Of a stretch of 32,000 bases of DNA, positions 2,427 through 18,256 are shown in pieces (within the stretch, counting starts at the first letter, position 1; each line of letters starts with the position of its first letter). Origin of the DNA: Acaryochloris marina MBIC11017. GTDB lineage: Bacteria > Cyanobacteriota > Cyanobacteriia > Thermosynechococcales > Thermosynechococcaceae. Where the stretch lies: positions 1,530,001 through 1,562,000 of the forward strand of contig NC_009925.1 in the NCBI RefSeq assembly GCF_000018105.1, read 5' to 3'. The notes under the pieces are model-generated. The model did no database searches and had not been told where the DNA came from. It saw only the letters and a program-made list of their open reading frames with translations. A program made the position numbers and the translations under genes.

Positions 2427-3395
2427 CTACAAATCGCTCTTGGGAATCTCTTCTTTAAAGTCAACGACTAACTGCATGGCTTCTAACACCAAGGCCCGTA
2501 AATCCTGGGTTAGGGGAACCTTTGCCTGGTCTCCAAACCAGCGATCAAACGTCTCCACATAGGATGCTTTACCTTGCAAATACCCTTGCATAAAGCGCAC
2601 TAACGAATAATTAACTTGATCGGCAAACTTAGAGTTATTCTCAGGCATCATGCAGGCAATCCCTTCTTTGGAAAAATACCCGATAATATTGAATGCGCTA
2701 GGATTTTTAGCCGTTTGCAGCCAAGCATCCAATAGAATGCCATCGGCGGCAAAAGCATCCACTTTACCCTGCTGAAGGGCGTCATATCCTTCCCCATGAT
2801 TTTTTACAATCACGATTTGGGCTTGCGGCTGAGCTCGACGGATGGCCGTTTCATTGGTGGTGGCTGCAAGGGCCGCAATTTTCTTATTTGCTAGGTCAGG
2901 GGTTTCCCACGCTGCATTTTCCTGCTTTACGAGCAGGCGAGTACCCGTCAGGCCATAGCTCACAGAGAAGTCAATTTGCTTATCCCGCTCCCAAGTATAG
3001 CTACTGGCATCACAAACGATATCCACCTTCCCTTGGACTAGTTTAGGAATCCGGTCTTCGGGATTGATGGCAACCAGCTGTAACTGAACCTCTCGCCCTA
3101 GCTCTTTGGTCAACTGATCTTTGATCAATTGCAGCATCTCAATCGAGTAGCCTTGTAATTGCCCTTGCTCATCTGCAAAGGCAAAAGGTTGCGCTTCTTG
3201 GCTAGTCCCAGCCGTTAACTGCCCCGTACGCTGCACTTTCTCCAACACTGATTCGGCAGCAGCAAACGGTGCTCCTAAGTAGGTGAACAGAATCGTCAGG
3301 ATAGCGATTGTTTTTGGCCGCCTGAGCAGGCTCGGTCGGCACGGGGAAGAAGGAGAAGCGTCACTCTCGGAGGGGCTAAGATTGCCTAGTTTCAT
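2427..3395 (-). CDS. amino-acid ABC transporter substrate-binding protein (family 3 SBP)
   Basis: 322 aa. Hydrophobic signal/anchor TIAILTILFTYLGAPFAAAES, then SBP_bac_3-like blocks (AGTSQEAQPFAF, GYSIEMLQLI, DIVCDASSYTWERDKQIDFSVSY, VDAFAADGILL). No permease or ATPase gene is adjacent. Confidence 0.85.
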   Translation of the reverse strand: MKLGNLSPSESDASPSSPCRPSLLRRPKTIAILTILFTYLGAPFAAAESVLEKVQRTGQLTAGTSQEAQPFAFADEQGQLQGYSIEMLQLIKDQLTKELGREVQLQLVAINPEDRIPKLVQGKVDIVCDASSYTWERDKQIDFSVSYGLTGTRLLVKQENAAWETPDLANKKIAALAATTNETAIRRAQPQAQIVIVKNHGEGYDALQQGKVDAFAADGILLDAWLQTAKNPSAFNIIGYFSKEGIACMMPENNSKFADQVNYSLVRFMQGYLQGKASYVETFDRWFGDQAKVPLTQDLRALVLEAMQLVVDFKEEIPKSDL

Positions 3396-3604
3396 AGGGG
3401 AAGACGGTATTAGTATAGGATTTTCAAAGCTGAGTCAAATCAACAAAGCTAGTGCAGATGCGTTAAAGAGTGCATCCATAAGCGACACATCTGCCAGAGA
3501 TTCCAATGAACCTTGAACGCTAAACTACCAGCAATACCTGAGCTTGAGAAGGCAAACGTCATGTTCTGTTACGAGGCTGTTGCTGCCTTAGCAATGACTG
3601 AGTC

Positions 3605-3634
3605 AAAAAAAAGCACACTTGAGTTAAGTGTGCT
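3605..3634 (-). terminator. Rho-independent terminator (minus strand)
   Basis: The minus strand reads AGCACACTT-aactc-AAGTGTGCT followed by TTTTTTTT. The perfect 9-bp stem spans 3612-3620/3626-3634, the loop is 5 nt, and the U8 tract spans 3605-3612. There is no U tract in the plus orientation. Confidence 0.65.
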
Positions 3635-4572
3635 GAATGGAGTTCACGTAAGAGATGTGTTGGTTGGTGCAAGCTCCTTTATTATACATAGATTTATATA
3701 TATCTTCAATCATGAATAGATTTATTTTAATCTATCAATAATCTAAACGTTTCTTGACTTTGACTGTTGTCGAGATAGACGGCAGTGGCTCCAAATGGCT
3801 TCTCTGTCTAGCTTTTGGCCACTCATGGACAAACAGAGCACCACTTCATCCCAGCAAGCAGCTTCGAACAGATGATCTGTCCCTAAAATTTGCTCAGCAC
3901 CTTGCTGCTTGATACCAATTACGGTTTTGCCGATGCAAACCCCTAAATTGCCAACCCCCGGCAAGATTTCAATGGCGGTTCTAGGGGCTATCAGCTAAGT
4001 CGTTTGAGCATCATTTCGATAACCAAAAATCCACAGTTGTTGTGGCGGTCGAGTTTTGGCCAAGCTTTGGTAGAAACTAGCAGGAATGTGGGACTTTATG
4101 GTCACAAATAGAAGTATCAAACACAGAAATACAATATTATTTACTGCCAATACAAATTGCCAGCAGAATTCAAAGCAATATGCGGATGCAACAAATCAAG
4201 ACTTCATTGCAGATCGCAGCAGTGTGCTACTACCCAATTGATAGCAATCCCTATCTAACTCACCTACAACAGGGTGAAATCCAAAAATCTTGACTCAGCT
4301 AATTAATAGTCGTTATCAATAATTAGTCTTTTAGGGTCTCCACTTTTTAGACTGTCTTAACGAACTCATGCCAATTCAAACCCCTGAAATACCCTCACCA
4401 CAATTAATTCATAGGAAGCCTAAGTTGTAGAGGCCCTATGACAATGAATAATATTTTTGATTTAAATCAAAAAATTACTTATTCTATTTGCTTCTAATAG
4501 TTGCAGTAAGCCGTATTTATGACTGATGATTGATCTCAATAGCAGTTCTTAAAAAGCAGCCCCAGTAGCCCT

Positions 4573-5629: not shown

Positions 5630-8377
5630 CTATGCCTTCCCTTTGAGAGACAAGGCGTTATCAACCAAGTCAGCAATTTGATCGAATTGAAACCCGCTAA
5701 ATAGCTTCATTAGCTTCTTAGTCAACCTGGGATTGTCAGCAGTAATGTCCGCTATTTTTTGACTCACTAATTCCTCATCCAGTTCCACCGCTGCTTGTTG
5801 AAATTGAGTTAGCCATTCTTCAGTCCGTTGCGATAACTGCAATTCTGCTTCTCGATCTCTCATCAACGGTGAATCCCCATCACCAGATGCCGCAACGGTC
5901 TGCCCCTGATTACCATACAAGAACTTCAAATTCAGATGTTGGACCAGAAGCTCGTATAACATACTGGGTTGATAAGGTTTGCATAGAAAATCATCACAGC
6001 CCACGTCTTCGCATTCAGCTTGAGTATCTTCAAAGACACTAGCAGAGACCGCAATAATGATGGTTCTTTCAGGCAACCGATCCGTAATCTCAACAGCATT
6101 TTGTGAAGCAAGATCGCCAGCATCCTGATCTTGAGCTTCTAAGGAGCGAATAGCTTTCGTTGCTTCATATCCATTCAGGATCGGTAGTTGCCAATCCATC
6201 CAAATCATATGAGGACGCCAAGTTTGCCAGCACTCTACCGCGGCTTGGCCATTGTCGACGGTTTGCACCTCAAATCCCAACTCCGTCATCAGTCGCTTTA
6301 GGATCTGACGGTTTTCTGGATTATCTTCGACGATCAGCATTCGGATCGGTGCTTGGTCAGGAGCAAGACCAATAACATTCGCATAGGCAGAGTCTTCAAC
6401 AGCCTTCACTTCTGGGATCAATACAGGAATCTGCACAGATACTGTTGTTCCTTGCCCCAGCTGACTCTGGATCTGAATATCGCCTTCCATCAGGTGGATA
6501 AAGTGATGACAAATCGCTAGGCCCAACCCCGTTCCTTCATGTGAGCGTCGCCCCGATGAGGTTTGGATAAAGGCTTCAAAAATATGATCGAGTTCATTGT
6601 TCGCTATGCCAATTCCCGTATCTTCGACGTCAAAGCATAAAGAGAGACTCGGTTGAAGTGTCTCCTGATTTAGCGAAAAGGGTGCAGGTAAGGGTTGGGT
6701 AAAAACTCTCAGAGTAACGGAGCCAACATCTGTAAACTTCAAGGCGTTGGTCAACAGATTAATCAATACTTGCCGAAGCCTGCTTTCATCAACACGGATA
6801 TGAGACGGTAATTGGCTTGATTTTTGAATGTTCAGCACTAACCCTTTCGACTTGGCCTTTAAAGCAAACATTTCTTGCAAGGAATCTAGCAAGGGGAGCA
6901 GGTCACAGTTTTTGGGATTGAGGGCAATTTTTCCTGCTTCTATCTTGGACATGTCCAACACATCATTGATCAAACTCAGTAGATGGGAACCACTCCGATT
7001 AATAGTATTGAGAGTTTGTTTTTGTTCAAGAGTTAGGTTTTCATCCCGCGCTAACAGTTGGCTAAACCCCAAAATGGCATTCAGCGGCGTTCTCAACTCA
7101 TGACTCATATTGGCTAAAAAAGCACTTTTAGCTTTATTTGCTGCTTCTGCTTTATCTCTGGACTCTCGGACCTGCTTTAATAACTCTGCCTGTTGCAATG
7201 CCACACCGAGCTGAGCCCCTGCCTGCTTTAAGAGGTAAAGTTCGACTTTATGCCATTGACGTGGGACGTTAAGCTGATAGGCTGCCAGCAATCCCCATAA
7301 GGTTTCTCCAATGAAAACAGGAACAACCATATAGGCACGAATCTTGTACCATTCCAAAATCTCTAAATGGCAGTCTCTATAAGATTCTTGGTAAATGTCA
7401 GCTACAACTGTAGTAGCATTATCTCGGTACTTTCCCCCTTGGTTTTCTTGCAAATAAGTATCCTGCCAAACCATTGGCACCTCTAATTCTGAGAGGGGCA
7501 GGATGTTAGGGGCAGTTGCTTCAACGAGAAATTCTCCAGACCAATCAGGAAAAAATTTGTAGACGACGACGCGATCGCATCCCAAAGACTCCCGCACATC
7601 ATGGGTCGTCGCCCGAAAAATATCTTGAATATCTAAACTTTGCCGAATACGCAGAATAATCTCAGCAATATTACGCTCATACTTTGCTTTCCAAGCCTCC
7701 TGCTCCTTTTGGATCTCAACCTGCTGTAGAGCAAGTTGTAATTGCTGAGACTTTTCCAAGGCATGCTCATATAATTTTGCCTGCTTTAGCGCAATGCTGA
7801 GCTGAGTTGCCAGTTGCTGGACAAACTCAATCTCAGTCGGTAACCAGACACGAGGCCCTGAGCACTGATGAATACATAAAAATCCCCATAATGTATCCCC
7901 TTGAAGCATCGGAACCACCAATGTTGCCCGTACTTCAAACCGCGCATAAATTTGAATATGAAACTCACTCAATCCCGCTTTATAAACATCTTCAATGGCA
8001 AACACCTGTCCTAACTGATACCTAGAAACAGGATTCAGCCCCAAAGACTCTTCACGAACTTGAGCCGAAACGACAGAACAAAAGACGGGTAAAACCCTCT
8101 CTGCAACAAATACACCTTCTGTATAGTTAGATTCAGGATCAAGCCGAAATATCGCGACGCGATCTGCTTTTAATATGTTCTGAATTTTATCGACAGCAAT
8201 CTGAAAGATAGTATTGGTATCAAGGTTCTGTTGAATTTCATTCGTTACCTCTCTCAACAAAGTAGAATGCTGTAGCAGCATTTCGAGCTTTGCATCGCGA
8301 CTTGGAGTATGGTCTTCTTCTGTAAAACCATTTTGATGGCATGAGCAGGGCGGATGAAAAGGTTTCGGTTCAGTCAC
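5630..8377 (-). CDS. hybrid sensor histidine kinase (GAF-GAF-HisKA-HATPase-REC with helical C-terminal tail)
   Basis: 915 aa. Two GAF-like modules (about aa 40-200 and 240-400) are separated by coiled coils. H-box FLANMSHELRTPLNAILGF. ATPase boxes LINLLTNALKFT, DTGIGI, GTGLGLAI. Receiver MLIVEDNPENRQIL...IWMDWQLPILNGYEA...DDFLCKP. The last roughly 90 aa are helical, with no HxxKG Hpt motif seen. Confidence 0.9.
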   Translation of the reverse strand: MTEPKPFHPPCSCHQNGFTEEDHTPSRDAKLEMLLQHSTLLREVTNEIQQNLDTNTIFQIAVDKIQNILKADRVAIFRLDPESNYTEGVFVAERVLPVFCSVVSAQVREESLGLNPVSRYQLGQVFAIEDVYKAGLSEFHIQIYARFEVRATLVVPMLQGDTLWGFLCIHQCSGPRVWLPTEIEFVQQLATQLSIALKQAKLYEHALEKSQQLQLALQQVEIQKEQEAWKAKYERNIAEIILRIRQSLDIQDIFRATTHDVRESLGCDRVVVYKFFPDWSGEFLVEATAPNILPLSELEVPMVWQDTYLQENQGGKYRDNATTVVADIYQESYRDCHLEILEWYKIRAYMVVPVFIGETLWGLLAAYQLNVPRQWHKVELYLLKQAGAQLGVALQQAELLKQVRESRDKAEAANKAKSAFLANMSHELRTPLNAILGFSQLLARDENLTLEQKQTLNTINRSGSHLLSLINDVLDMSKIEAGKIALNPKNCDLLPLLDSLQEMFALKAKSKGLVLNIQKSSQLPSHIRVDESRLRQVLINLLTNALKFTDVGSVTLRVFTQPLPAPFSLNQETLQPSLSLCFDVEDTGIGIANNELDHIFEAFIQTSSGRRSHEGTGLGLAICHHFIHLMEGDIQIQSQLGQGTTVSVQIPVLIPEVKAVEDSAYANVIGLAPDQAPIRMLIVEDNPENRQILKRLMTELGFEVQTVDNGQAAVECWQTWRPHMIWMDWQLPILNGYEATKAIRSLEAQDQDAGDLASQNAVEITDRLPERTIIIAVSASVFEDTQAECEDVGCDDFLCKPYQPSMLYELLVQHLNLKFLYGNQGQTVAASGDGDSPLMRDREAELQLSQRTEEWLTQFQQAAVELDEELVSQKIADITADNPRLTKKLMKLFSGFQFDQIADLVDNALSLKGKA

Positions 8378-9000
8378 TTTAGGTAAAGCTCTAGCAAAGA
8401 CTTTTACGACTTAAGATAGCTTAAACCCCTCAATCATGATTACACTAATCCTGACTAAAGGGTTCAAAAATCCAGAGTGAATAAACCTATATTGCCCATA
8501 ATTTTAACCGACAGTTTTAGTTATCAAGTATGGTGTCTAACTCTAGAAAATAAAAAATCTATGATAAAGATTATTATTAAAATTACTACGGTCAATTAAA
8601 AAATCTATTTGTGATTTACTCATTAAAATCAGCGAACAATCTATGCATAGCATTAAAATCCAAAGGTTCGCCTGTTCATATAATGCCAGGTAGTTAAAGA
8701 TTTTATCGAAAGTATTTTCGATGAAATCTTATTCTTATATCTTCAATAAACCAAGTTTCTTGTTCCAGGAATTGAGAACTATATGAGGCTTAGCTATCGG
8801 CTGCTTTTTGCTGATAGCTTTGTGCTTTATACAGTTTCTTTAGAGAAAGATAAAACTGAATCATTTCATGAACAAACGTTAGAATAAAAAATTACCAAGC
8901 ATTACCTCTGTTTTTTTGAGGTTATTTACTATTCAAACATCTAATATCTAGAATATGAAGTGCTTGCAGTAGAAACAAAAAGCGTTTTAATCCCATTCAA

Positions 9001-9468
9001 TTACATCAATAAAGTTCGAGTAAGTTGTAGTGCAGGCCCCATTAGTTCAGATTCTTCGGGTGATAAATGATCTTCCACGACTTTAGGCATTTCTTGCCAA
9101 GTGAGCGAGGAAGCTTCCTCGCTCTGAATAGCACGTACGATGGTTCCTTGCCATATTAATAACCCCTCACGCAGTCTATCTACATCATTGAACAACATCG
9201 CTGCGGCTGAGTGACGTAGCGTATTTTTCCGATCTCGACGGCATATCTCTGAACAATCTTCAGTTCCCTTCTGAAAGATCTGAGGATCAATCGATTTAAG
9301 GTTCTCCTCCACCTGATCCATGATCACCTCTTCAGCATCTCGAACTTTTTCATAGGTACTTATACGTTGACGCACAGAGCCAAGATAGGCTTTTAAGAAT
9401 GCCAGTTCTTGTTCTGTCGCATAGCGGCCATCTGTTTCAATTCGCAAGTTTTTGAGTTGTGAAAACAT
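9001..9468 (-). CDS. phycobilisome-protein-like (globin-fold) protein
   Basis: 155 aa, all-helical. The N-terminal DGRYATEQELAFLKAY..R...YEK and central ICRRDRKNTLRHSAAAML blocks match, from memory, the phycobiliprotein fold family (PF00502-like). This includes a C-x-R-D motif at the position of the bilin-attachment Cys. The gene lies 26 nt downstream of the ferredoxin gene on the same strand. Confidence 0.7.
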   Translation of the reverse strand: MFSQLKNLRIETDGRYATEQELAFLKAYLGSVRQRISTYEKVRDAEEVIMDQVEENLKSIDPQIFQKGTEDCSEICRRDRKNTLRHSAAAMLFNDVDRLREGLLIWQGTIVRAIQSEEASSLTWQEMPKVVEDHLSPEESELMGPALQLTRTLLM

Positions 9469-9494
9469 GAGATATCTCCTTGATCAATATTGAT

Positions 9495-9977
9495 TTAATT
9501 CAGCTGGGAAGTTGCAACTTGAGTGGCAACTTCACTTTGGGTTTCTTTCAGTTGAGTAATCATGGATCGAGTAATCAATTTTCCCGTCTCCACTAGGACT
9601 CGGCCATCAAGAGGATGCAAGATATTCTCCTCAGTGCGACGACCAATCAGATTTTCAATCTCACTCATCTCACTGAGATACATGCCAGATGGAAGCTCTA
9701 CGACCACACCTTCGCCGACGACCTTACTTTGGCAAGCCAGGCGGGACTGATGCTGGCATGTTGCAATTACCCCCAATGTGCGGCGTTCCCGGCGACTCAC
9801 TGGCGATAAATGCTCCATCCCCTCTTTGATGAAGATATGGCAAGTTGCACACATGCCCCTGCCCCCACATTCCTGTAAGACCTGCAATTCTTGCTTTAGT
9901 AACACCGACAGCAAATGATCGTTGGTACTCACAGTTGCTTCTTGGCCAATCGGGTCCAGTCTGACGACCTTTGACAT
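9495..9977 (-). CDS. [2Fe-2S] ferredoxin-domain protein with C-terminal extension
   Basis: 160 aa. Cys pattern C-x5-C-x2-C...C (ECGGRGMCATCHIF ... SRLACQSKV) is typical of 2Fe-2S ferredoxins. About 60 extra C-terminal residues have no recognisable motif. Confidence 0.85.
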   Translation of the reverse strand: MSKVVRLDPIGQEATVSTNDHLLSVLLKQELQVLQECGGRGMCATCHIFIKEGMEHLSPVSRRERRTLGVIATCQHQSRLACQSKVVGEGVVVELPSGMYLSEMSEIENLIGRRTEENILHPLDGRVLVETGKLITRSMITQLKETQSEVATQVATSQLN

Positions 9978-10687
9978 TCAGATATTCTCCAGAATCGCTT
10001 TCTGATCAACCTCACCAGTGGCCGCTATCTAGTTAGCAGTGATGACAGATTGCCTAGTGAACTATCTCAATGGCCAGTTCAGTTGACATGTTCTATACGG
10101 GTAGGTGAACTTCAGTAAAAACAGTTCATAGCCACCTACATCAAGTGATGGGTTCACAAACCCAACCGGATAGGGTTGGACTTTTCACATTTTTAAAATA
10201 AGCAAGGATAGTAAAGAAAAGGCAGAAGAATTCGGGAAGAATTCAGGAAATCTTATTAATACACTTTTCCTATCAAAGCCATTGCTAAGTTAATAGTAGA
10301 AATAGCTATAAAACTCTGTCAGTATAGATAAGACTGATTGAAGTATTGTATTTCTGATTGAAAACCACATAATCCCAAAAAAAATATCTGAGCCCATCAG
10401 CATCTAGCCACTAGTCCGTATTCCTGCGGTTAGCACGTCAATCCTATGCTTTTAGTGTCTACTAGAAAACTCACTTTTAAAGCTATGAATAGCCATCCTG
10501 TAGTGATTCTTCTAGAGTACTGTGGCCCTATGTAGAAAGATATCGAGCAACCCACCCTTGAATGTCTGTCGCCATTAGTAGGCCGGAAACGCTGCACATC
10601 AATTTCAACAGAGCTATTTGTGAAGCACAACACTCTCTCCCCAACGGATTACTATAAAGATAGTCCTGCAGTATCCACCCAAAAGGG

Positions 10688-11350
10688 ATGACCAAGTCTG
10701 ATCCCAATCGAATATTACGTTTACTGCCCTTTGCAGTTGGGGGGCTAGGCGGAACCCTACTCATGCTGAACCGCCTACTGACCCCAAATTTAACGACATC
10801 CCAAGCTCGCTCCGATGCAGTTGGCGTCATTATCAGTGCTGTACTGATATTGACAGGGTTACTCTGGCAACGAGTTCAACCGCGATCACCTGAAGCGGTC
10901 GAACTGATTGGAGAACAGGGCTTTGAACTCGCACCTCACTTACCAGAATCCATGCAAACGGAGTTGGCTTGGGCCTCTCACATTTTGCTCACCAATACCG
11001 TTACCAAATCTGTGGTGATTTGGTATCGCGATCAGGTATTGCTCCGACGAGGAGTCTTAGGACCGACCTCAACGGTGAAACCTGGTGCCATTGTTGAGCG
11101 GGTTTTGAATACTGGAAAAGCGGTCTATTTAGTAGCCCTGAAGCTTTATCCAGGCAGGGTTGAGTTCAATTATCTCCCTGAAAATACTCAGGGTGTAATC
11201 TGCCAGCCCATTGGTCAGGAAGGCGTTCTTATTTTAGGTGCCAATGTCCCTCGCAGCTACACCAACCAGGATGAAGCATGGGTGAGTGCGATCGCAGATA
11301 AATTAGACAATACCCTCAGCCAACAAGAATCAACCCCCATTTCTGGATAA
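10688..11350 (+). CDS. membrane-anchored protein, probably cofactor-assembly-of-complex-C subunit B-like (CCB2/CCB4, DUF2930)
   Basis: 220 aa with two N-terminal TM helices (LLPFAVGGLGGTLLML; VGVIISAVLILTGLLW) followed by a soluble domain. Size and layout match my recollection of cyanobacterial DUF2930 proteins. Coding status is solid; the family call is tentative. Confidence 0.55.
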   Translation: MTKSDPNRILRLLPFAVGGLGGTLLMLNRLLTPNLTTSQARSDAVGVIISAVLILTGLLWQRVQPRSPEAVELIGEQGFELAPHLPESMQTELAWASHILLTNTVTKSVVIWYRDQVLLRRGVLGPTSTVKPGAIVERVLNTGKAVYLVALKLYPGRVEFNYLPENTQGVICQPIGQEGVLILGANVPRSYTNQDEAWVSAIADKLDNTLSQQESTPISG

Positions 11351-11901
11351 TGTCTGTGGACTTTCTAAGCACTCTTCAAGACCAGCAAATCATTCTGTAT
11401 TGGATCCTTATCGCCGTCATGATCATCGGCGTTATCGGCTCCGTTGTCCCCGCTTTACCAGGCTCTAGCCTTGTACTAATTGCCATCTTGCTCTGGGGCT
11501 TAGTGGTCGGCTTCGGCAAAATTGGCGTGGCCTTGGGGGTCGCCATAGCAGTACTCGTCATCAGCACAGCCGTAGATTTTCTAGCCACTTTTTGGGGAGC
11601 GAAAAAAGCCGGGGTCAGCCGTTGGGGGCAGATTGGCGCAATGGTCGGATTAGTTGCAGTTCTATTTGGCCTTTTACCCCCTGCACTAGTCGTTGGCGGT
11701 CCCATTATTGGTCTGCTGATTGGCCCATTTCTGGGTGCATTTATCGGAGAGTTTTTGTATCGGCGCAACCTCAAGCAGGCATTAAAAGCTGCGGTAGCAG
11801 TCGTTGCTAGCTCCTTGATCGGTAATTTAATTCAGGGTATATTGGCGTTGGGGGCCGTGATTGTCTTTCTCATCACAACTTGGTCGAGTGTAATGGGTTG
11901 A
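11350..11901 (+). CDS. DUF456 family membrane protein
   Basis: 183 aa, very hydrophobic and Gly/Ala-rich. The motif FWGAKKAGVSRWGQIGAMVG...GLLIGPFLGAFIGE is typical of DUF456. The start overlaps the upstream stop by 1 nt (TAATG), implying translational coupling. Confidence 0.8.
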   Translation: MSVDFLSTLQDQQIILYWILIAVMIIGVIGSVVPALPGSSLVLIAILLWGLVVGFGKIGVALGVAIAVLVISTAVDFLATFWGAKKAGVSRWGQIGAMVGLVAVLFGLLPPALVVGGPIIGLLIGPFLGAFIGEFLYRRNLKQALKAAVAVVASSLIGNLIQGILALGAVIVFLITTWSSVMG

Positions 11902-12080
11902 CAAGGCGACTCGAGCAAGCCCAACTATTCCATCATTTTGCACAACAGGTGAATTACACGCCCCATATTGAGCGTAGATCCCCTACTGCAACTAGTAGAC
12001 ACGAATCGATGCAGATTCTAGGTCTGCACGAAATCTAGAGAGTTTTGCAAGCCCCACCCATAGAACCCGCGGTCTTATTA

Positions 12081-12126
12081 GGTCTCAGAATTTCGAGGTC
12101 TAACGAGATCTTGGAATTCTGAGACC
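12081..12126 (+). terminator. long stem-loop between convergent genes (candidate 3' end structure of the DUF2930-DUF456 operon)
   Basis: Perfect 12-bp arms GGTCTCAGAATT (12081-12092) and AATTCTGAGACC (12115-12126). As plus-strand RNA the stem extends inward to about 21 bp using three G-U pairs, closing on loop AACG (12102-12105). Only a weak AUUU tail follows. Confidence 0.4.
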
Positions 12127-12164
12127 ATTTCAGCTCATGACTCTAAGGTAAACGCGTTTGACTC

Positions 12165-15100
12165 TCAAACTTGATCAGGATTTTCAATCACCATAAATAC
12201 ATGGTCTTTGAGTAAGTCTGCACCTACACCTGCAAAGAAAGCCAGATGATCGCCTGTACTTGCAACGCTTACCGCTGAGCTGTGTCCTACAGAGGTAACC
12301 CTAAGGTCGTTAAATGAGAGGTGCTCGGCCATCAAGATCACTTTATCAACAGCTACATCAAAATCAAGAATATAATCTCTCTCTTCACCCGGTTCAAGGA
12401 CAAAAGTATCTGATCCTGCGCCACCAACCAGCAGATCTTTACCGTTTCCACCTCTCAATCGATCATGACCATCACCGCCAAACAGATAATCACGACCATG
12501 GCCTCCTAGCAACTCATCATCACCCGATCCTCCCTTGAGAGTATCCTTGCCAGCATTACCCTGAATATGATCATTACCACCCCGTCCAAATAGATGATCG
12601 TCACCGCCAAGGCCTCTAATGGTGTCATGTCCATCCATACCGACAAGTTTGTCATGGCCATGAGTCCCATGCAGCACTTTGCCCGAGCTAGTATTTTCTT
12701 CGCCATCTCCTGAATCATTCTCATTTCTCTCCTCTCCCTCATCATCCGAATCATTATCTTCATTCGAGAAATCATCGTTCAAGATAGTGGTGGTGGCAGA
12801 GTCGGTGCTAATAGTTGCGATGCCGGGGGCAGTTCCATTCGAAAGGGACACCACAATGGTTTCATCAGGCTCTATATGCGTGTCGCCTAATACATCAAGG
12901 GTGATGGTTTTGCTAGTTTCATCGACACCAAAATTGATAGTCCCAGTTAAACCAGATGCGCTACTGGTACCGCCAATATTGTTGAAATCTTCCGTATTGG
13001 TTGCAGTACCTCCAAACGTAAAGTCAACACTGCTAGCGGTTTGAGTAGAGCCAGTTCGAGTGACTGTGAAGGTGACTTGTTGGGCTCCACTATCTCCCTC
13101 AGTCAGCGTGACTGGACTTGTTGTTATAGCGTAGTCAATATCAGCTGGGGGTGGTGGCGGAGGTGGAGCAACATCATCATTCAAGATGGTTGTGGTTGCA
13201 GAGCTAGTACTGATAGTCACTGTACCAGGTGCAGTCCCATTGGCAAGGGACACCACAATAGTCTCATCTGGCTCAATATCAGTATCACCTAGAACATCAA
13301 GGGTAATCGTTTTGCTAGTTTCATCTGCTCCAAAATTGATAGTTCCGGTTAAACCAGCAGCACCACTAGTTCCGCCAATATTGTTAAAGTCTTCCGTATT
13401 AGTAGCTGTACCACCAAACGCAAAGTCAACACTGCTGGCATCTTGAGTGGCCCCTGTTCGAGTCACTGTAAATGTGACTTGCTGTGCTCCACTATCTCCC
13501 TCAGTGACATTTACTGCACTCGTCTCGATGACGTAATCAATATCAGCAGGTGGAGGTGGTGCAGCATCATCGTTCAAGATAGTTGTGGTCGCTGAATCGA
13601 TACTAATAGTTGCGGTGCCAGGAGCAGTTCCATTAGCAAGGGACACAACGATGGTCTCATCTAGCTCAATATCAGTGTCACCCAAGACATCCAACGTGAT
13701 GGTTTTACTGGTTTCATCTGCTGCAAAATTGATCGTTCCAGTTAAACCAGCAGCACCACTGGTGCCACCAATATTATTGAAATCTTCAGTATTAGTTGCC
13801 GTACCATCAAAACTGAAATCGATGCTGCTGGCAACTTGAGTAGCCCCTGTTCGAGTGACTGTGAAAGTGACTTGTTGGGTTCCGCTATCTCCCTCAGTCA
13901 ACGTGACTGGATTTGTTGCTATGGCGTAGTCAATATCAGCTGGGGGTGGGGGCGGCGGTGGAGCAACATCATCGTTCAAGATAGTTGTGGTCGCAGAGTT
14001 AGTGCTGATAGTCGCTGTACCAGGAGCAGTCCCATTGGCAAGGGAAACAACGATAGTCTCATCTAGCTCAATATCAGTGTCACCCAAGACATCCAACGTG
14101 ATGGTTTTACTGGTTTCATCTGCTCCAAAATTGATAGTTCCAGTTAAACCGGATGCACCACTGGTGCCGCCAATATTGTTGAAATCTTCCGTATTCGTTG
14201 CTGTGCCACCAAAACTGAAGTCAACACTGCTAGCGTTTTGAGTCGCTCCTGTTCGAGTAACCGTAAAGGTAACTTGTTGGGCTCCGCTATCTCCTTCTGT
14301 GAGTGTGACTGGATTTGTTGCTATAGCGTAGTCAATATCAGCTGGGGGTGGAGGCGGAGGTGGACCAACATCATCGTTCAAGATGGTTGTGGTTGCAGAG
14401 CCAGTGCTGATAGTCGCTGTGCCAGGAGAAGTAGGGTTGGCAAGAGACACAACGATGGTTTCATCGGGTTCAATATTGGTGTCGCCCAGAACATCAAGGG
14501 TAATCGTCTTACTGGTTTCACCAACACCAAAATTAATAGTGCCCGTTAATCCCGAAGCACCACTGGTGCCACCAATATTAGTGAAATCTTCAGTATTCGT
14601 TGCTGTGCCACCAATCGTAAAGTCAATGCTTGTAGCAGCTTGAGCAGCAGCCACTTGAGAGAACGCACTGCTAGTAGATTGAGTCGTACCTGTTCCTGTT
14701 TGAATAACTGCAGCGCTAGCAACCTGAGTGATCTCTGTCCGAGTGACGGTGAAGGTGACTTGCTGGGCGCCACTATCCCCCTCAGTGAGCGTTACGGCAC
14801 TCGTCGCTATAGCGTAATCAATATCAGAAGGTGGGAGTATAGGGGTGATATTACTGCCAAGACTATATCTACCAGTTGTGTCACCAACTCCATCAAATAG
14901 AAGGGTATATGTACCACTATTGGCTAACGAGAAACTATCAATTTCAACGTCATCCAACGCAGCATTAGATACATCAGAAGCTAAAACAGTCATGCCATCA
15001 GTATCTAACAAGCGAACGCGTATTCTTTGTAAACCAGATGTGGTCAAATTATCTGCAAAAACTGAGAATTGAGTACCAGCCTGAGCATCAAAAGTATAGG

Positions 15101-16616
15101 CTTCACCATCGCCTGCAAATTCTAAGGTTTCAACTATGTTTGAATTATTACCAATAGTCAAAGCCCCTTGTGTGAAATTGGTTAAGCCAAGGGTGTAATC
15201 ACTAACACTATCTCCTATTCCATCAACTAGGAGAGTATAGGTTCCACTTGTCTCTATCTTGAAAGGTAAAGGAGTATCTCCAAAATTGAGGGTGCCCTCT
15301 CCAATCGCAACATCCCGGTTGCCACCTCGAACACTGGCATCTGAGTCCAGTAATGTCATACCATCCACATCTAGCAGACGGATGCGAAGACCTGGGTTCC
15401 CATCTGTCAAATTATCAACAAAGGCTTCAATTAAGTCTCCAGACTGAGCATCAAAGGTGTAAGACTCTCCATCTCCAGCAAATGCAATATTTCCAGATAG
15501 GCTTTGATTATCATCAATAGTCAAAGCCCCTTGTGTGAAATTGGTTAAGCCAAGGGTGTAATCACTAACACTATCTCCTATTCCATCAACTAGGAGAGTA
15601 TAGGTTCCACTTGTCTCTATCTTGAAAGGTAAAGGAGTATCTCCAAAATTGAGGGTGCCCTCTCCAATCGCAACATCCCGGTTGCCACCTCGAACACTGG
15701 CATCTGAGTCCAGTAATGTCATACCATCCACATCTAGCAGACGGATGCGAAGACCTGGGTTCCCATCTGTCAAATTATCAACAAAGGCTTCAATTAAGTC
15801 TCCAGACTGAGCATCAAAGGTGTAAGACTCTCCATCTCCAGCAAATGCAATATTTCCAGATAGGCTTTGATTATCATCAATAGTCAAAGCCCCTTGTGTG
15901 AAATTGGTTAAGCCAAGGGTGTAATCACTAACACTATCTCCTATTCCATCAACTAGGAGAGTATAGGTTCCACTTGTCTCTATCTTGAAAGGTAAAGGAG
16001 TATCTCCAAAATTGAGGGTGCCCTCTCCAATCGCAACATCCCGGTTGCCACCTCGAACACTGGCATCTGAGTCCAGTAATGTCATACCATCCACATCTAG
16101 CAGACGGATGCGAAGACCTGGGTTCCCATCTGTCAAATTATCAACAAAGGCTTCAATTAAGTCTCCAGACTGAGCATCAAAGGTGTAAGACTCTCCATCT
16201 CCAGCAAATGCAATATTTCCAGATAGGCTTTGATTATCATCAATAGTCAAAGCCCCTTGTGTGAAATTGGTTAAGCCAAGGGTGTAATCACTAACACTAT
16301 CTCCTATTCCATCAACTAGGAGAGTATAGGTTCCACTTGTCTCTATCTTGAAAGGTAAAGGAGTATCTCCAAAATTGAGGGTGCCCTCTCCAATCGCAAC
16401 ATCCCGGTTGCCACCTCGAACACTGGCATCTGAGTCCAGTAATGTCATACCATCCACATCTAGCAGACGGATGCGAAGACCTGGGTTCCCATCTGTCAAA
16501 TTATCAACAAAGGCTTCAATTAAGTCTCCAGACTGAGCTGTGAAGGTATAACTTTGAGTATCTCCTGGGAAAGCAATACTCGCAGCAAGAATTTGGTCAT
16601 CATTTATAGGAGGCAT
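12165..16616 (-). CDS. giant secreted repeat protein: 5 PPC-like modules, 5 Calx-beta modules with polyproline linkers, an acidic linker, RTX calcium-binding repeats and a C-terminal tail (probable T1SS substrate/adhesin)
   Basis: 1483 aa with no N-terminal signal peptide (MPPINDDQIL).
- aa 1-597: five ~120-aa modules with a YTF.A..G......SGTYTLLVDG.GD...YTL pattern, resembling the pre-peptidase C-terminal domain.
- aa 598-1282: five Calx-beta-like modules (DIDY...VTLTEGDSG.QQVTFTVTRTG...EDF...ETSKTITLDVLGDT.IE.DETIVVSL...ILNDD) joined by PPPPPPP linkers.
- aa 1283-1312: acidic linker (NEDNDSDDEGEERNEND).
- aa 1313-1407: GGxGxD nonapeptide RTX repeats (GLGGDDHLFGRGGNDHIQGNAGKDTLKGGSGDDELLGGHGRDYLFGGDGHDRLRGGNGKDLLVGGAGSD). 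Confidence 0.95.
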   Translation of the reverse strand: MPPINDDQILAASIAFPGDTQSYTFTAQSGDLIEAFVDNLTDGNPGLRIRLLDVDGMTLLDSDASVRGGNRDVAIGEGTLNFGDTPLPFKIETSGTYTLLVDGIGDSVSDYTLGLTNFTQGALTIDDNQSLSGNIAFAGDGESYTFDAQSGDLIEAFVDNLTDGNPGLRIRLLDVDGMTLLDSDASVRGGNRDVAIGEGTLNFGDTPLPFKIETSGTYTLLVDGIGDSVSDYTLGLTNFTQGALTIDDNQSLSGNIAFAGDGESYTFDAQSGDLIEAFVDNLTDGNPGLRIRLLDVDGMTLLDSDASVRGGNRDVAIGEGTLNFGDTPLPFKIETSGTYTLLVDGIGDSVSDYTLGLTNFTQGALTIDDNQSLSGNIAFAGDGESYTFDAQSGDLIEAFVDNLTDGNPGLRIRLLDVDGMTLLDSDASVRGGNRDVAIGEGTLNFGDTPLPFKIETSGTYTLLVDGIGDSVSDYTLGLTNFTQGALTIGNNSNIVETLEFAGDGEAYTFDAQAGTQFSVFADNLTTSGLQRIRVRLLDTDGMTVLASDVSNAALDDVEIDSFSLANSGTYTLLFDGVGDTTGRYSLGSNITPILPPSDIDYAIATSAVTLTEGDSGAQQVTFTVTRTEITQVASAAVIQTGTGTTQSTSSAFSQVAAAQAATSIDFTIGGTATNTEDFTNIGGTSGASGLTGTINFGVGETSKTITLDVLGDTNIEPDETIVVSLANPTSPGTATISTGSATTTILNDDVGPPPPPPPADIDYAIATNPVTLTEGDSGAQQVTFTVTRTGATQNASSVDFSFGGTATNTEDFNNIGGTSGASGLTGTINFGADETSKTITLDVLGDTDIELDETIVVSLANGTAPGTATISTNSATTTILNDDVAPPPPPPPADIDYAIATNPVTLTEGDSGTQQVTFTVTRTGATQVASSIDFSFDGTATNTEDFNNIGGTSGAAGLTGTINFAADETSKTITLDVLGDTDIELDETIVVSLANGTAPGTATISIDSATTTILNDDAAPPPPADIDYVIETSAVNVTEGDSGAQQVTFTVTRTGATQDASSVDFAFGGTATNTEDFNNIGGTSGAAGLTGTINFGADETSKTITLDVLGDTDIEPDETIVVSLANGTAPGTVTISTSSATTTILNDDVAPPPPPPPADIDYAITTSPVTLTEGDSGAQQVTFTVTRTGSTQTASSVDFTFGGTATNTEDFNNIGGTSSASGLTGTINFGVDETSKTITLDVLGDTHIEPDETIVVSLSNGTAPGIATISTDSATTTILNDDFSNEDNDSDDEGEERNENDSGDGEENTSSGKVLHGTHGHDKLVGMDGHDTIRGLGGDDHLFGRGGNDHIQGNAGKDTLKGGSGDDELLGGHGRDYLFGGDGHDRLRGGNGKDLLVGGAGSDTFVLEPGEERDYILDFDVAVDKVILMAEHLSFNDLRVTSVGHSSAVSVASTGDHLAFFAGVGADLLKDHVFMVIENPDQV
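12396..12680 (-). repeat. RTX (hemolysin-type) nonapeptide Ca-binding repeat region
   Basis: About ten consecutive G-G-x-G-x-D-x-L/I-x units in aa 1313-1407 of the giant ORF. Confidence 0.85.
12771..14825 (-). repeat. diverged tandem array of about 400 bp x 5 (Calx-beta modules plus Pro linkers)
   Basis: Module lengths are 162, 134, 131, 134 and 124 aa. Antisense ORFs recur at 13186, 13585, 13987 and 14383, a spacing of 396-402 nt. Unlike the 363-bp array, copies differ at many positions, and module 1 carries a roughly 28-aa insertion. Confidence 0.85.
15152..16538 (-). repeat. perfect 363-bp tandem repeat, about 3.8 copies (encodes identical 121-aa PPC-like modules)
   Basis: Line-by-line comparison at a 363-nt offset shows the units 15152-15514, 15515-15877, 15878-16240 and 16241-16538 to be base-identical. 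Four identical antisense ORFs at 15259, 15622, 15985 and 16348 confirm the phase. Identity breaks at 15151 and at 16539. Confidence 0.95.
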
Positions 16617-17422
16617 TTTTCTACCTAAGATAAGTTTTTATTTATTGCAAAACCTCAAATACAAATGGAATTAGCTTCATCTGTATCCAGCATTCAAAGT
16701 ACACATACCATTAGACTTATAAGGTCTAAAATCAGCATGTGATAATCGCTGCCCAATGATTATCTGAGATACTCAATTAAGTAGCAGCGCTAAGGTAAAA
16801 CTTGGTCTTGAATAGCTATGAGATGAGACCAACCTAGGTTCAAGAAGCGCATCTTGAATTTAGATATAAGAACTATCTATCTTTCGACAGGTGGCTGACT
16901 ACACTTCTAAGATAGAGCACTAAGAACGACATCTTAAGCTTATCTATTGGCCTAGACAGCTACTCTAGAAACATATTAGAAATGTTGAAAGACTATTTTC
17001 ATAAAATACTTTATTTGAGGCATTAAATATTTAAATTTTCTAAAATATATTTTCTCATAAAACTTCTGAAAAAGAATTTAATAGCAACTTGATTACAATA
17101 AGAAATCTACATCTCAATCTCATTTATTTGTCAAAACTTTAATGAAACTTTTTTATATCAATCAACAAAAAATAGAAAAAAGCAAAGAGACAGGAAGTCA
17201 ATAATAGACTTAAAAACATCTCGTCTTCCTAGATTTTTGGGGGAGTTTGTATTACATATGCAGAACAACAGAGGCTTCAGATATCTTGGAAGGAATAAGC
17301 TACCTATCAAAATCTATGGATATCTCTGCTGATTAGATAGGAAAGAGCTGCTTTGTCGTTTGCGATCGCAACTCATCCATCCAAACTTCCTAGCGCCACC
17401 TCACATTTTTCCGTTTTCCCCC

Positions 17423-17454
17423 TTGACTCTCACCCTACGTGAGGTTTCTATCAT
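17423..17454 (+). promoter_or_regulatory. candidate MerR-type promoter/operator with over-long spacer
   Basis: TTGACT (17423-17428), a 20-nt spacer, then TATCAT (17449-17454). The spacer contains the inverted repeat CTCAC-cctac-GTGAG (17429-17443). The site lies 65 nt upstream of the MerR-family start at 17519. Confidence 0.45.
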
Positions 17455-17518
17455 GGAACCATTCACACATGAGGATTGCTTCCCAATGCCGGAGAGAAAC
17501 ATCAGTCAACGGGTTTCT

Positions 17519-18256
17519 ATGAAAGTGGGCGAATTAGCTCAACAAACTGGCGTCTCCGTGCGTACATTGCACCACTACGACAAGATCGGTTTACTCTCGC
17601 CCTCTCGACGCACCGAAGCAGGATATCGACTCTATGGCGATGATGACATTATTCGCTTGCAGCAAATTGTCTCATTACGTCAACTTGGTTTTTCCCTAGC
17701 GCAAATCCAAGACTGCTTGAATCAGAATGAATTTTCTCCCCATGACGTGGTGCAACTGCATCTATCCAAACTCAAAGAACACATTGAGCTACAGCAGCTA
17801 TATGCACGGCTAGAAATCATCGCTTCTCAGCTGCAGTCTACAGAAGCAATCTCAATTCAAGACTTCCTTCAATTAATAGAGGTCACAAACATGATCGAGA
17901 AATACTACACCCCAGAACAGCAAGCGCAACTTCAGGCTAGACGGGAAGCTCTAGGTGAAGAGCACATCCATCAAGCCGAGGCAGAATGGCAAACGCTAAT
18001 TGACCAAGCCCGGACTGAAATGGCAAAAGGCACGAATCCAGCCAGTGAAGCCATGCAAGTCATCGTTCAAAAATGGCAATCACTGATCCAACAGTTCACT
18101 GGGGGCGATTCAGGTATTGCCTCATCTTTACAGTCGATGTATCAACAAGAGGGGGCAGAGGTAGCGAGTAGAGGCATGGTGGATCCTGAGCTGATGGAAT
18201 TTATGGGGAAAGCGATGGCAGCCACCAAAGGCTCGGATCATACTGGCCAGGTTTAA
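17519..18256 (+). CDS. MerR family transcriptional regulator with TipAS-like C-terminal effector domain
   Basis: I call the start at ATG 17519 because MKVGELAQQTGVSVRTLHHYDKIGLLSPSRRTEAGYRLYGDDDIIRLQQIVSLRQLGFSL is a canonical MerR N-terminus. The track's TTG at 17360 and the ATG at 17453 would add a non-conserved leader and overlap the putative promoter. The C-terminal YYTPEQQAQLQARREALGEE...WQ.LI....GGD resembles the TipAS antibiotic-recognition domain. Confidence 0.85.
   Translation: MKVGELAQQTGVSVRTLHHYDKIGLLSPSRRTEAGYRLYGDDDIIRLQQIVSLRQLGFSLAQIQDCLNQNEFSPHDVVQLHLSKLKEHIELQQLYARLEIIASQLQSTEAISIQDFLQLIEVTNMIEKYYTPEQQAQLQARREALGEEHIHQAEAEWQTLIDQARTEMAKGTNPASEAMQVIVQKWQSLIQQFTGGDSGIASSLQSMYQQEGAEVASRGMVDPELMEFMGKAMAATKGSDHTGQV

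Follow-up and report, generated by a model that had tools for sequence, protein, structure and literature searches.

How does a gene come to carry almost four tandem copies of a 363-bp unit that do not differ by a single base, and does the number of copies change from strain to strain? This question is raised by a locus of the cyanobacterium Acaryochloris marina MBIC11017, which we analyzed within a window of 32,000 nucleotides of the chromosome (NC_009925.1, positions 1,530,001 to 1,562,000); coordinates below are those of the window unless another sequence is named. The 5′ end of a minus-strand chromosomal gene (12165-16616) carries the repeat array, and all features of this gene described below lie on the same strand. 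The encoded protein of 1,483 residues was 100% identical over its full length to ABW26586.1 / UniProt B0C951 from A. marina MBIC11017. Open reading frame (ORF), Pfam, and NCBIfam analyses showed that it consists of five PPC-type modules, five Calx-beta modules, an acidic linker, an RTX region, and a tail. The base-perfect array extends from the body of PPC module 1 through modules 2-4 into the first few codons of module 5. As argued below, it is very probably an in-frame array under concerted evolution, with a module number that varies among strains, via unequal crossing-over or slippage together with gene conversion.

An offset comparison placed the perfect 363-bp periodicity at exactly 15152-16538, which corresponds to 1,387 bp or 3.82 units. 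Each base was the same as the base 363 positions further on over a longest run of 1,024 consecutive bases, which cannot have arisen by chance, and no mismatches were found among the units at 15152-15514, 15515-15877, and 15878-16240 and the partial unit at 16241-16538. Tandem Repeats Finder (TRF) called the array at 15139-16538 (period 363, 3.9 copies, 99%), and BLASTN and TBLASTN self-matches also marked it. When one unit was compared with the whole window by BLASTN, we detected three 100% copies, a head copy at 93%, and a weak match to module 5, and no further unit copies elsewhere in the window. All third-codon positions were alike among the copies across the 1,387 bp. Since the unit length is a multiple of three (363 = 3 × 121), gains and losses of units stay in frame.

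Both edges of the array were abrupt. Module 1 begins with 26 diverged codons (16539-16616; MPPINDDQILAASIAFPGDTQSYTFT), followed by the repeat-identical body; these first 78 nt of the gene were identical to the equivalent unit segment at 44/78 positions, and this head shares ancestry with the unit's terminal part without having been homogenized. At the 3′ edge, ungapped identity fell to 132/327 after 15152. Modules 2-4 are identical, and the fifth, terminal PPC module (14826-15164, residues ~485-597), recognized by its PF04151 match and its identity to the unit, is diverged; it is of the same domain type as the unit, with 47% amino acid and ~60% nucleotide identity. The identical tract begins in the middle of PPC module 1 and stops a few codons into module 5, so that its edges do not match the domain boundaries, suggesting a process acting on the DNA and not selection at domain boundaries. 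Likewise, the non-integer number of 3.82 units and the homologous but diverged edges argue for conversion or crossing-over within a pre-existing module array and not for a single clean duplication. Further downstream in the gene, the Calx-beta modules (five, from 14825; PF03160) form an older tandem array of 402 bp × 4.7 at 12771-14648, which was only 81% matched in TRF. A sequence-only reading of this DNA had described base-perfect units inside an RTX/Calx-beta ORF, a diverged neighboring module of the same fold, diverged first 26 codons, and many substitutions in the downstream Calx-beta modules, and our analysis bore out this description.

We then compared the syntenic orthologous loci of MBIC10699 (AP026075), S15 (CP064923), CCMEE 5410, and Moss Beach (CP071717), in which the gene is followed by DUF456 and CCB2_CCB4 genes downstream and preceded by acetyltransferase/methyltransferase genes upstream. 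In MBIC10699, the closest relative of MBIC11017 (average nucleotide identity (ANI), 98.0), the array occupies gene nt 79-2191 and contains 5.82 base-perfect units versus 3.82 in MBIC11017, giving proteins of 1,859 and 1,483 residues, respectively. The array starts at the same nucleotide in both strains (gene nt 79) and ends in the same 3′ junction sequence. The head at 16539-16616 is identical in MBIC10699, and all five strains share a conserved N-terminal sequence. The units of the two strains differ at one synonymous third-codon position, a Val codon that reads GTG in MBIC11017 (16455, recurring at 16092, 15729, and 15366, with C on the plus strand at all four) and GTA in MBIC10699. The coding strand carries G in 4/4 MBIC11017 copies and A in 6/6 MBIC10699 copies. 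A distant metagenomic homologue has four related modules, each with GTA at this site, a weak hint that G is derived and spread to every copy of the MBIC11017 array. Only ~6 substitutions separate the two strains in the 8 kb upstream (24790-16617), and module 5 shows only 3 mismatches per 500 bp. Judged by the 8-kb flank, the number of modules changed by two and a base was replaced in all copies while the neighboring DNA stayed nearly static. The Calx-beta array of MBIC10699 carries one extra base-perfect 402-bp unit (gene nt 2987-3860; 6 modules versus 5), so this array is dynamic too.

The other strains displayed the same pattern with less complete homogenization. The numbers of PPC/Calx-beta modules, which depend on the assemblies, were 5/5 in MBIC11017, 7/6 in MBIC10699, 4/5 in CCMEE 5410, 6/8 in S15, and 7/8 in Moss Beach; two pairs of these five strains are at ANI ~98%. 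The orthologues have PPC units of 333 and 336 bp, the eight Calx-beta modules of S15 and Moss Beach have a 393-bp period, and the open frame is kept in all variants. Internal PPC modules were 93-98% identical within S15 and 97% identical within CCMEE 5410 versus 83-84% between these strains; matched by position, the first modules of the two strains are 87% identical and the last modules 85%. When S15 is compared with Moss Beach (ANI 98%), 1 and 8 mismatches separate their terminal modules and 11-29 their internal modules; among the internal modules of Moss Beach itself there are 0-10, and two of these modules are identical. Here, internal modules group by strain and terminal modules by position. 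In all three strain comparisons, paralogous copies within a genome were closer than orthologous copies between genomes. The short-read draft of a further strain, NIES-2412, contains the gene only as fragments that end inside the repeat arrays (P0189 and P0190): one is a 105-residue N-terminal piece that ends in module 1, and the other, of 356 residues, takes up a whole 1,070-bp contig located between the two arrays. The sequence-only reading had expected recent amplification or ongoing homogenization, a strain-variable number of modules, and trouble in short-read assemblies. The all-copy synonymous difference between two perfect arrays with the same edges, the counts of 5, 7, 4, 6, and 7 PPC modules across the five loci, and the NIES-2412 fragments agree with these three expectations in turn, and the same assembly problem is reported in the literature on RTX adhesins. 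The idea that NIES-2412 is a synonym of MBIC11017, which its S15-type allele would contradict, was dropped because papers treat it as a different strain.

A strain-specific G/A variant present in all copies of each strain argues for concerted evolution. Together with an identical interior, edges that follow descent, and whole-unit, in-frame changes, it forms the textbook signature of this process. In the proposed mechanism, the long identical units would allow chromosome copies to pair out of register. Whole modules would then be gained or lost in frame by unequal crossing-over between sister chromosomes or multiple genome copies, by replication slippage, and by gene conversion, and through the same exchanges the copies would repeatedly replace one another, leaving a homogenized array. 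The edges, namely the first 26 codons and the fifth module, are ~56-60% identical to the unit; since they would be too diverged from it to pair out of register, they would evolve by ordinary descent. The identity, the shared sharp edges, the all-copy variant, and the differing counts were seen directly in the assemblies, and recombination or slippage would be the process behind them. For its enzymology, RecA-dependent or not, and its rate, we draw on general knowledge of tandem-repeat instability. More or fewer N-terminal beta-sandwich modules would, by analogy with RTX adhesins, alter the reach or valency of the protein outside the cell, and module number may have an adaptive role.

Several points weigh against this interpretation. 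The count of 3.82 and the base-perfect state are those of the MBIC11017 reference assembly of 2008, which is reportedly a Sanger assembly with reads shorter than the 1.39-kb array; if so, whole-unit collapse or expansion is possible there. The MBIC10699 and Moss Beach genomes are Oxford Nanopore Technologies (ONT)/Flye assemblies polished with short reads using Pilon, and such polishing could artificially homogenize near-identical copies. The comparison covers five strains with one genome each. As for the product, neither the 32-kb window nor the syntenic loci contain type I secretion genes (ABC transporter, membrane-fusion, or TolC-like), and the protein lacks an N-terminal retention module. 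Taken further, the assembly concern becomes an explanation of its own, in which collapse or expansion of repeats produced the MBIC11017 copy number and possibly the perfect identity, and the true count could equal that of MBIC10699. A perfect repeat of 1,387 bp exceeds a Sanger read, which reportedly was the kind used; the NIES-2412 short-read draft breaks exactly at the arrays; and such genes are often misassembled according to the literature. However, collapse cannot yield a G/A variant that separates the strains in every copy, and an array of this type with identical edges also appears in the independent ONT-based assembly of MBIC10699. In addition, the one-module difference between S15 and Moss Beach lies in arrays whose units can be told apart (93-98% identical) and hence assembled. 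We therefore regard an assembly artefact as unlikely.

A different possibility is that each lineage amplified one unit very recently, without continuing turnover, so that identity reflects youth. A very young amplification would leave its copies undiverged, as they are here, and the tiny local divergence of the flank between MBIC11017 and MBIC10699 is in line with it. Both strains, however, share the non-integer edges, which makes an array with a converted module-1 body older than their split, and yet all copies differ by a strain-specific base. The graded within-strain similarity (0-25 mismatches) and the lack of one-to-one orthology of internal modules in S15, Moss Beach, and CCMEE 5410 also point to repeated turnover and not to one event. 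A one-off burst is thus quite unlikely, although setting it apart from a contraction to a single unit with later re-expansion is in part a matter of words. If purifying selection acted on the protein, with no process at the DNA level, this would explain why the modules are identical in protein within and between MBIC11017 and MBIC10699. Such selection does not preserve synonymous sites, which refutes it here, since synonymous sites are also identical and the sole difference between the two strains is synonymous and present in all copies; the position of the tract edges off the domain boundaries is also against it. We consider this explanation highly improbable. Programmed diversification by a site-specific recombinase, a diversity-generating retroelement, or a phase-variation switch fares no better. 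Nothing was found in its favor: the MerR/TipAS and two-component system genes upstream are regulators and not recombinases, no reverse transcriptase, invertase, or integrase was found among the neighboring genes of the window or the syntenic loci, and no Rfam family was detected in the window. The variation consists of whole-unit gain and loss with homogenization and not of targeted mutagenesis or inversion, making a programmed system very hard to credit. Concerted evolution thus remains by far the most probable explanation.

What does each unit encode? An AlphaFold2 model of one representative 121-residue module (residues 124-244; 15885-16247), generated from a 14-sequence alignment of module variants, contained eight strands (predicted local distance difference test (pLDDT), 77; predicted template modeling score (pTM), 0.76) with a low-confidence loop at residues 76-83. 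In a Foldseek search of the PDB, the best match to this model was the collagen-binding domain (CBD) of ColH (3jqw; template modeling (TM) score, 0.69/0.70; root-mean-square deviation, 2.8), and Tk-SP (3afg), the ColG CBD (1nqj), and a Bacillus anthracis PPC domain (5sv5) were also found (TM score, 0.65-0.70; probability, 1.0). The module shares only 14-20% sequence identity with the solved PPC/CBD domains, and a search of PDB sequences with a single module found no match even at E 10. The Pfam PPC family (PF04151) scored 29.5 bits on the whole protein (cut-off, 25.9), and module 5 contained the best stretch (residues 507-572); the identical modules themselves are weak on this family. A HMMER search of the whole library with one 121-residue module retrieved 213 representative proteins at E <= 0.001, most of which have 2-17 tandem copies of the module. 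The nearest of these representatives score 39-198 bits on Pfam PPC, and two of them join PPC arrays with RTX repeats. The NCBI name of a fragment of the orthologue is "PPC domain-containing protein". Together, the PPC scores of the relatives, the AlphaFold2 model, the Foldseek matches, and the Pfam match of module 5 indicate that each unit encodes one PPC-type, CBD-like beta-sandwich. Positions D17, D36, N37, D51, and D70 are conserved in the module alignment. In ColG s3b, acidic residues of the N-terminal linker and loop coordinate Ca2+, and by its likeness to ColG the module may bind Ca2+.

The remaining protein fits an RTX architecture. Calx-beta domains (PF03160) were detected in the whole protein at E 2.8e-37 in five stretches; these five modules are separated by poly-proline linkers and are followed by the acidic linker and the RTX repeats. 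The RTX nonapeptide (beta-roll) region (12273-12680, residues ~1313-1448) was recognized by PF00353 (E 9.2e-21, four stretches) and by a partial match to NF033943 (RTX_toxin; residues 1313-1448), with no NCBIfam matches other than partial RTX-type ones, and is followed by a ~35-residue C-terminal tail. The RTX region and tail are presumably the type I secretion end. This domain architecture suggests a type-I-secreted, Ca2+-dependent surface or extracellular protein, with both secretion and location resting on the domain content. By inspection, no hydrophobic h-region was seen at the N-terminus (MPPINDDQILAASIAFPGD), and the first PPC domain begins at residue 3, which leaves no room for a retention module and probably none for an N-terminal signal peptide. 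With neither nearby type I secretion genes nor a retention module, it is the RTX region from which secretion and anchoring would follow. Adjacency of such genes is common and not obligatory, so the protein may be secreted by a system encoded elsewhere. Pfam and NCBIfam detected no additional domain that could represent a ligand-binding region before the beta-roll, where only the acidic linker is found. The label "giant RTX/Calx-beta gene" of the sequence-only reading holds as far as RTX and Calx-beta are concerned, but it omits the PPC-type nature of the repeated module, and with 1,483 residues the protein is large rather than giant.

Several further searches of this gene gave little. Weak Pfam matches to AcrIIA4, PLipase_C_C, BppU_N, and Choline_bind_3 were rejected, having zero significant stretches and scores piled up across the repeated copies. 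Promoter and terminator scans of the window gave counts within the expectation from shuffled sequence, and the recurrent "promoter-like" matches inside the units are one sequence counted four times. A genome-contig scan with the unique C-terminal 291 residues returned only generic RTX proteins of unrelated bacteria and none from Acaryochloris, and these loci were not used. No paper mentioning this protein was found in the literature.

Behavior of this kind is familiar from RTX adhesins and from surface proteins of Gram-positive bacteria; what is new here is the host and the domain type. Among type-I-secreted RTX adhesins, identical extender repeats of 250-650 bp are documented, which vary in number and defeat short-read assembly. 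In Marinomonas primoryensis MpAFP/MpIBP, for instance, region II comprises ~120 identical 104-residue repeats (PMC4083281). Like MpIBP/MpAFP, LapA, FrhA, and the Aeromonas adhesins, the A. marina protein has a C-terminal RTX beta-roll, a tandem run of beta-sandwich modules with near-identical DNA (here five PPC modules, four with identical bodies, and five Calx-beta modules), a strain-variable module number, and a gene that short-read assembly fails to resolve. Unlike in these adhesins, the repeated module is PPC/CBD-like and not a bacterial immunoglobulin-like (BIg-like) extender, the PPC array starts from residue 3 without an N-terminal retention module, the part that in fibrillar RTX adhesins plugs the pore in the outer membrane, and a separate ligand-binding region was not detected; in addition, its 1,483 residues are at the lower size limit of the class and the host is a cyanobacterium. 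No type I secretion, LapG, or LapD genes were found near the repeat gene among the neighboring genes in the window. The gene works like those of RTX adhesins but is not a member of the canonical fibrillar RTX adhesins.

Gram-positive surface proteins such as streptococcal alpha C/Rib/R28, Esp, Bap, and Aap/SasG have in-frame, nucleotide-identical repeats that each encode one small beta domain. In these proteins, copy number varies among isolates via recombination or slippage, and a role of repeat number in immune escape has been demonstrated experimentally. The A. marina array resembles this family in its long, identical in-frame repeats of variable number; conversely, those proteins are Sec-exported and sortase-anchored, belong to Gram-positive pathogens, and have another fold. 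ColG/ColH CBDs and the C-terminal beta-jelly-roll of Tk-SP share the fold of the single module (Foldseek TM score, 0.65-0.70), and ColG also has tandem copies of the domain (5iku). In those proteases, the domain is a C-terminal appendage in one or two copies, whereas here 5-7 copies of it make up an array at the N-terminus of an RTX protein that is not an enzyme. Finally, for cagY of Helicobacter pylori, PMC2194252 describes recombination between direct repeats in the gene of a surface-exposed protein, which gives in-frame variants. The A. marina gene likewise exists in in-frame variants, but the repeats of cagY are short, numerous, and heterogeneous, and cagY is part of a type IV secretion system, whereas here one long unit forms a simple head-to-tail array.

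These findings have several consequences. The length of this locus in the A. marina type-strain genome is untrustworthy when taken from short reads or old assemblies, and the locus could be used as a cheap strain-typing marker based on PCR size. With a swept synonymous variant, a change of two modules, and ~6 flank changes per 8 kb, it offers a clean natural case of concerted evolution. It also shows that the homogenized extender modules of RTX proteins are not only BIg-like domains but also PPC-type ones. Should adhesion depend on the number of modules or the type of cassette, the locus could bear on how Acaryochloris strains come to occupy different hosts and surfaces.

The term cassette refers to the N-terminal PPC region (~14834-16495), which forms a separate allele class in MBIC11017 and MBIC10699. 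BLASTN of this MBIC region against CCMEE 5410 or S15 gave no match, and its flanks are 94-96% identical to CCMEE 5410 and 82-86% identical to S15. MBIC-type modules share 53-62% amino acid identity with the CCMEE 5410/S15 modules and 66-69%, position by position, with the metagenomic protein P0006. The GC content at third codon positions is 0.30 in this region versus 0.36 in the remaining gene, and an extra domain of ~100 residues (SPNSISENGG...) that follows the PPC array in the other strains is absent from the MBIC strains. The N-terminal PPC region may therefore have been replaced as a cassette. A more far-reaching proposal is that the PPC array is a contingency-type locus in a chlorophyll-d cyanobacterium, with an N-terminal cassette swapped between lineages, that tunes or diversifies a surface structure; we regard this as a doubtful possibility with some chance of being correct. 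If it were true, module number would vary within cultures, or among the genome copies of one cell if the cell is polyploid, and the surface structure would serve attachment to ascidian or red-algal hosts or escape from phages or grazers.

Divergence between MBIC11017 and MBIC10699 around the gene (2193-26289) was strongly mosaic, with the quiet interval of ~6 mismatches in 8 kb at 24790-16617 and, per 500 bp, up to 61 mismatches at 8152-11151 and 33 at 26289-25790. This mosaic suggests recent tracts of homologous recombination, one of which would end in or near the repeat gene.

Among metagenomic relatives, contig ctg149005l of the European Nucleotide Archive (ENA) encodes a distant homologue (6001-14455 of the contig) with a homogenized PPC array of 342 bp × 3.4 (98%) and a second array of 303 bp × 7.9 (87%). 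The preceding gene also has PPC modules, and the homologue ORF shows an apparent frameshift at its end, just before a separate ORF with RTX repeats. An exact 36-mer of the MBIC unit (with R at the variable site) had 0 matches in metagenome contigs, and a metagenome scan with the module alignment yielded one contig of 2.1 kb that was too short to inform.

The neighboring genes differ among the strains. A divergently oriented MerR/TipAS regulator gene (17360-18256, plus strand) lies upstream of the repeat gene in MBIC11017, MBIC10699, and CCMEE 5410 and is missing in S15 and Moss Beach. In both MBIC11017 and MBIC10699, a 2Fe-2S ferredoxin-domain gene (9495-9977, minus strand) and a PF00502 phycobilisome-family gene (9001-9468, minus strand) sit between the CCB2_CCB4 and GAF histidine kinase genes; this pair is absent there in S15, and CCMEE 5410 has two unrelated genes instead. 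S15 carries an insertion sequence element (DDE_Tnp_1 / DUF4277 transposase; 16243-17925 of its locus) directly downstream of the repeat gene.

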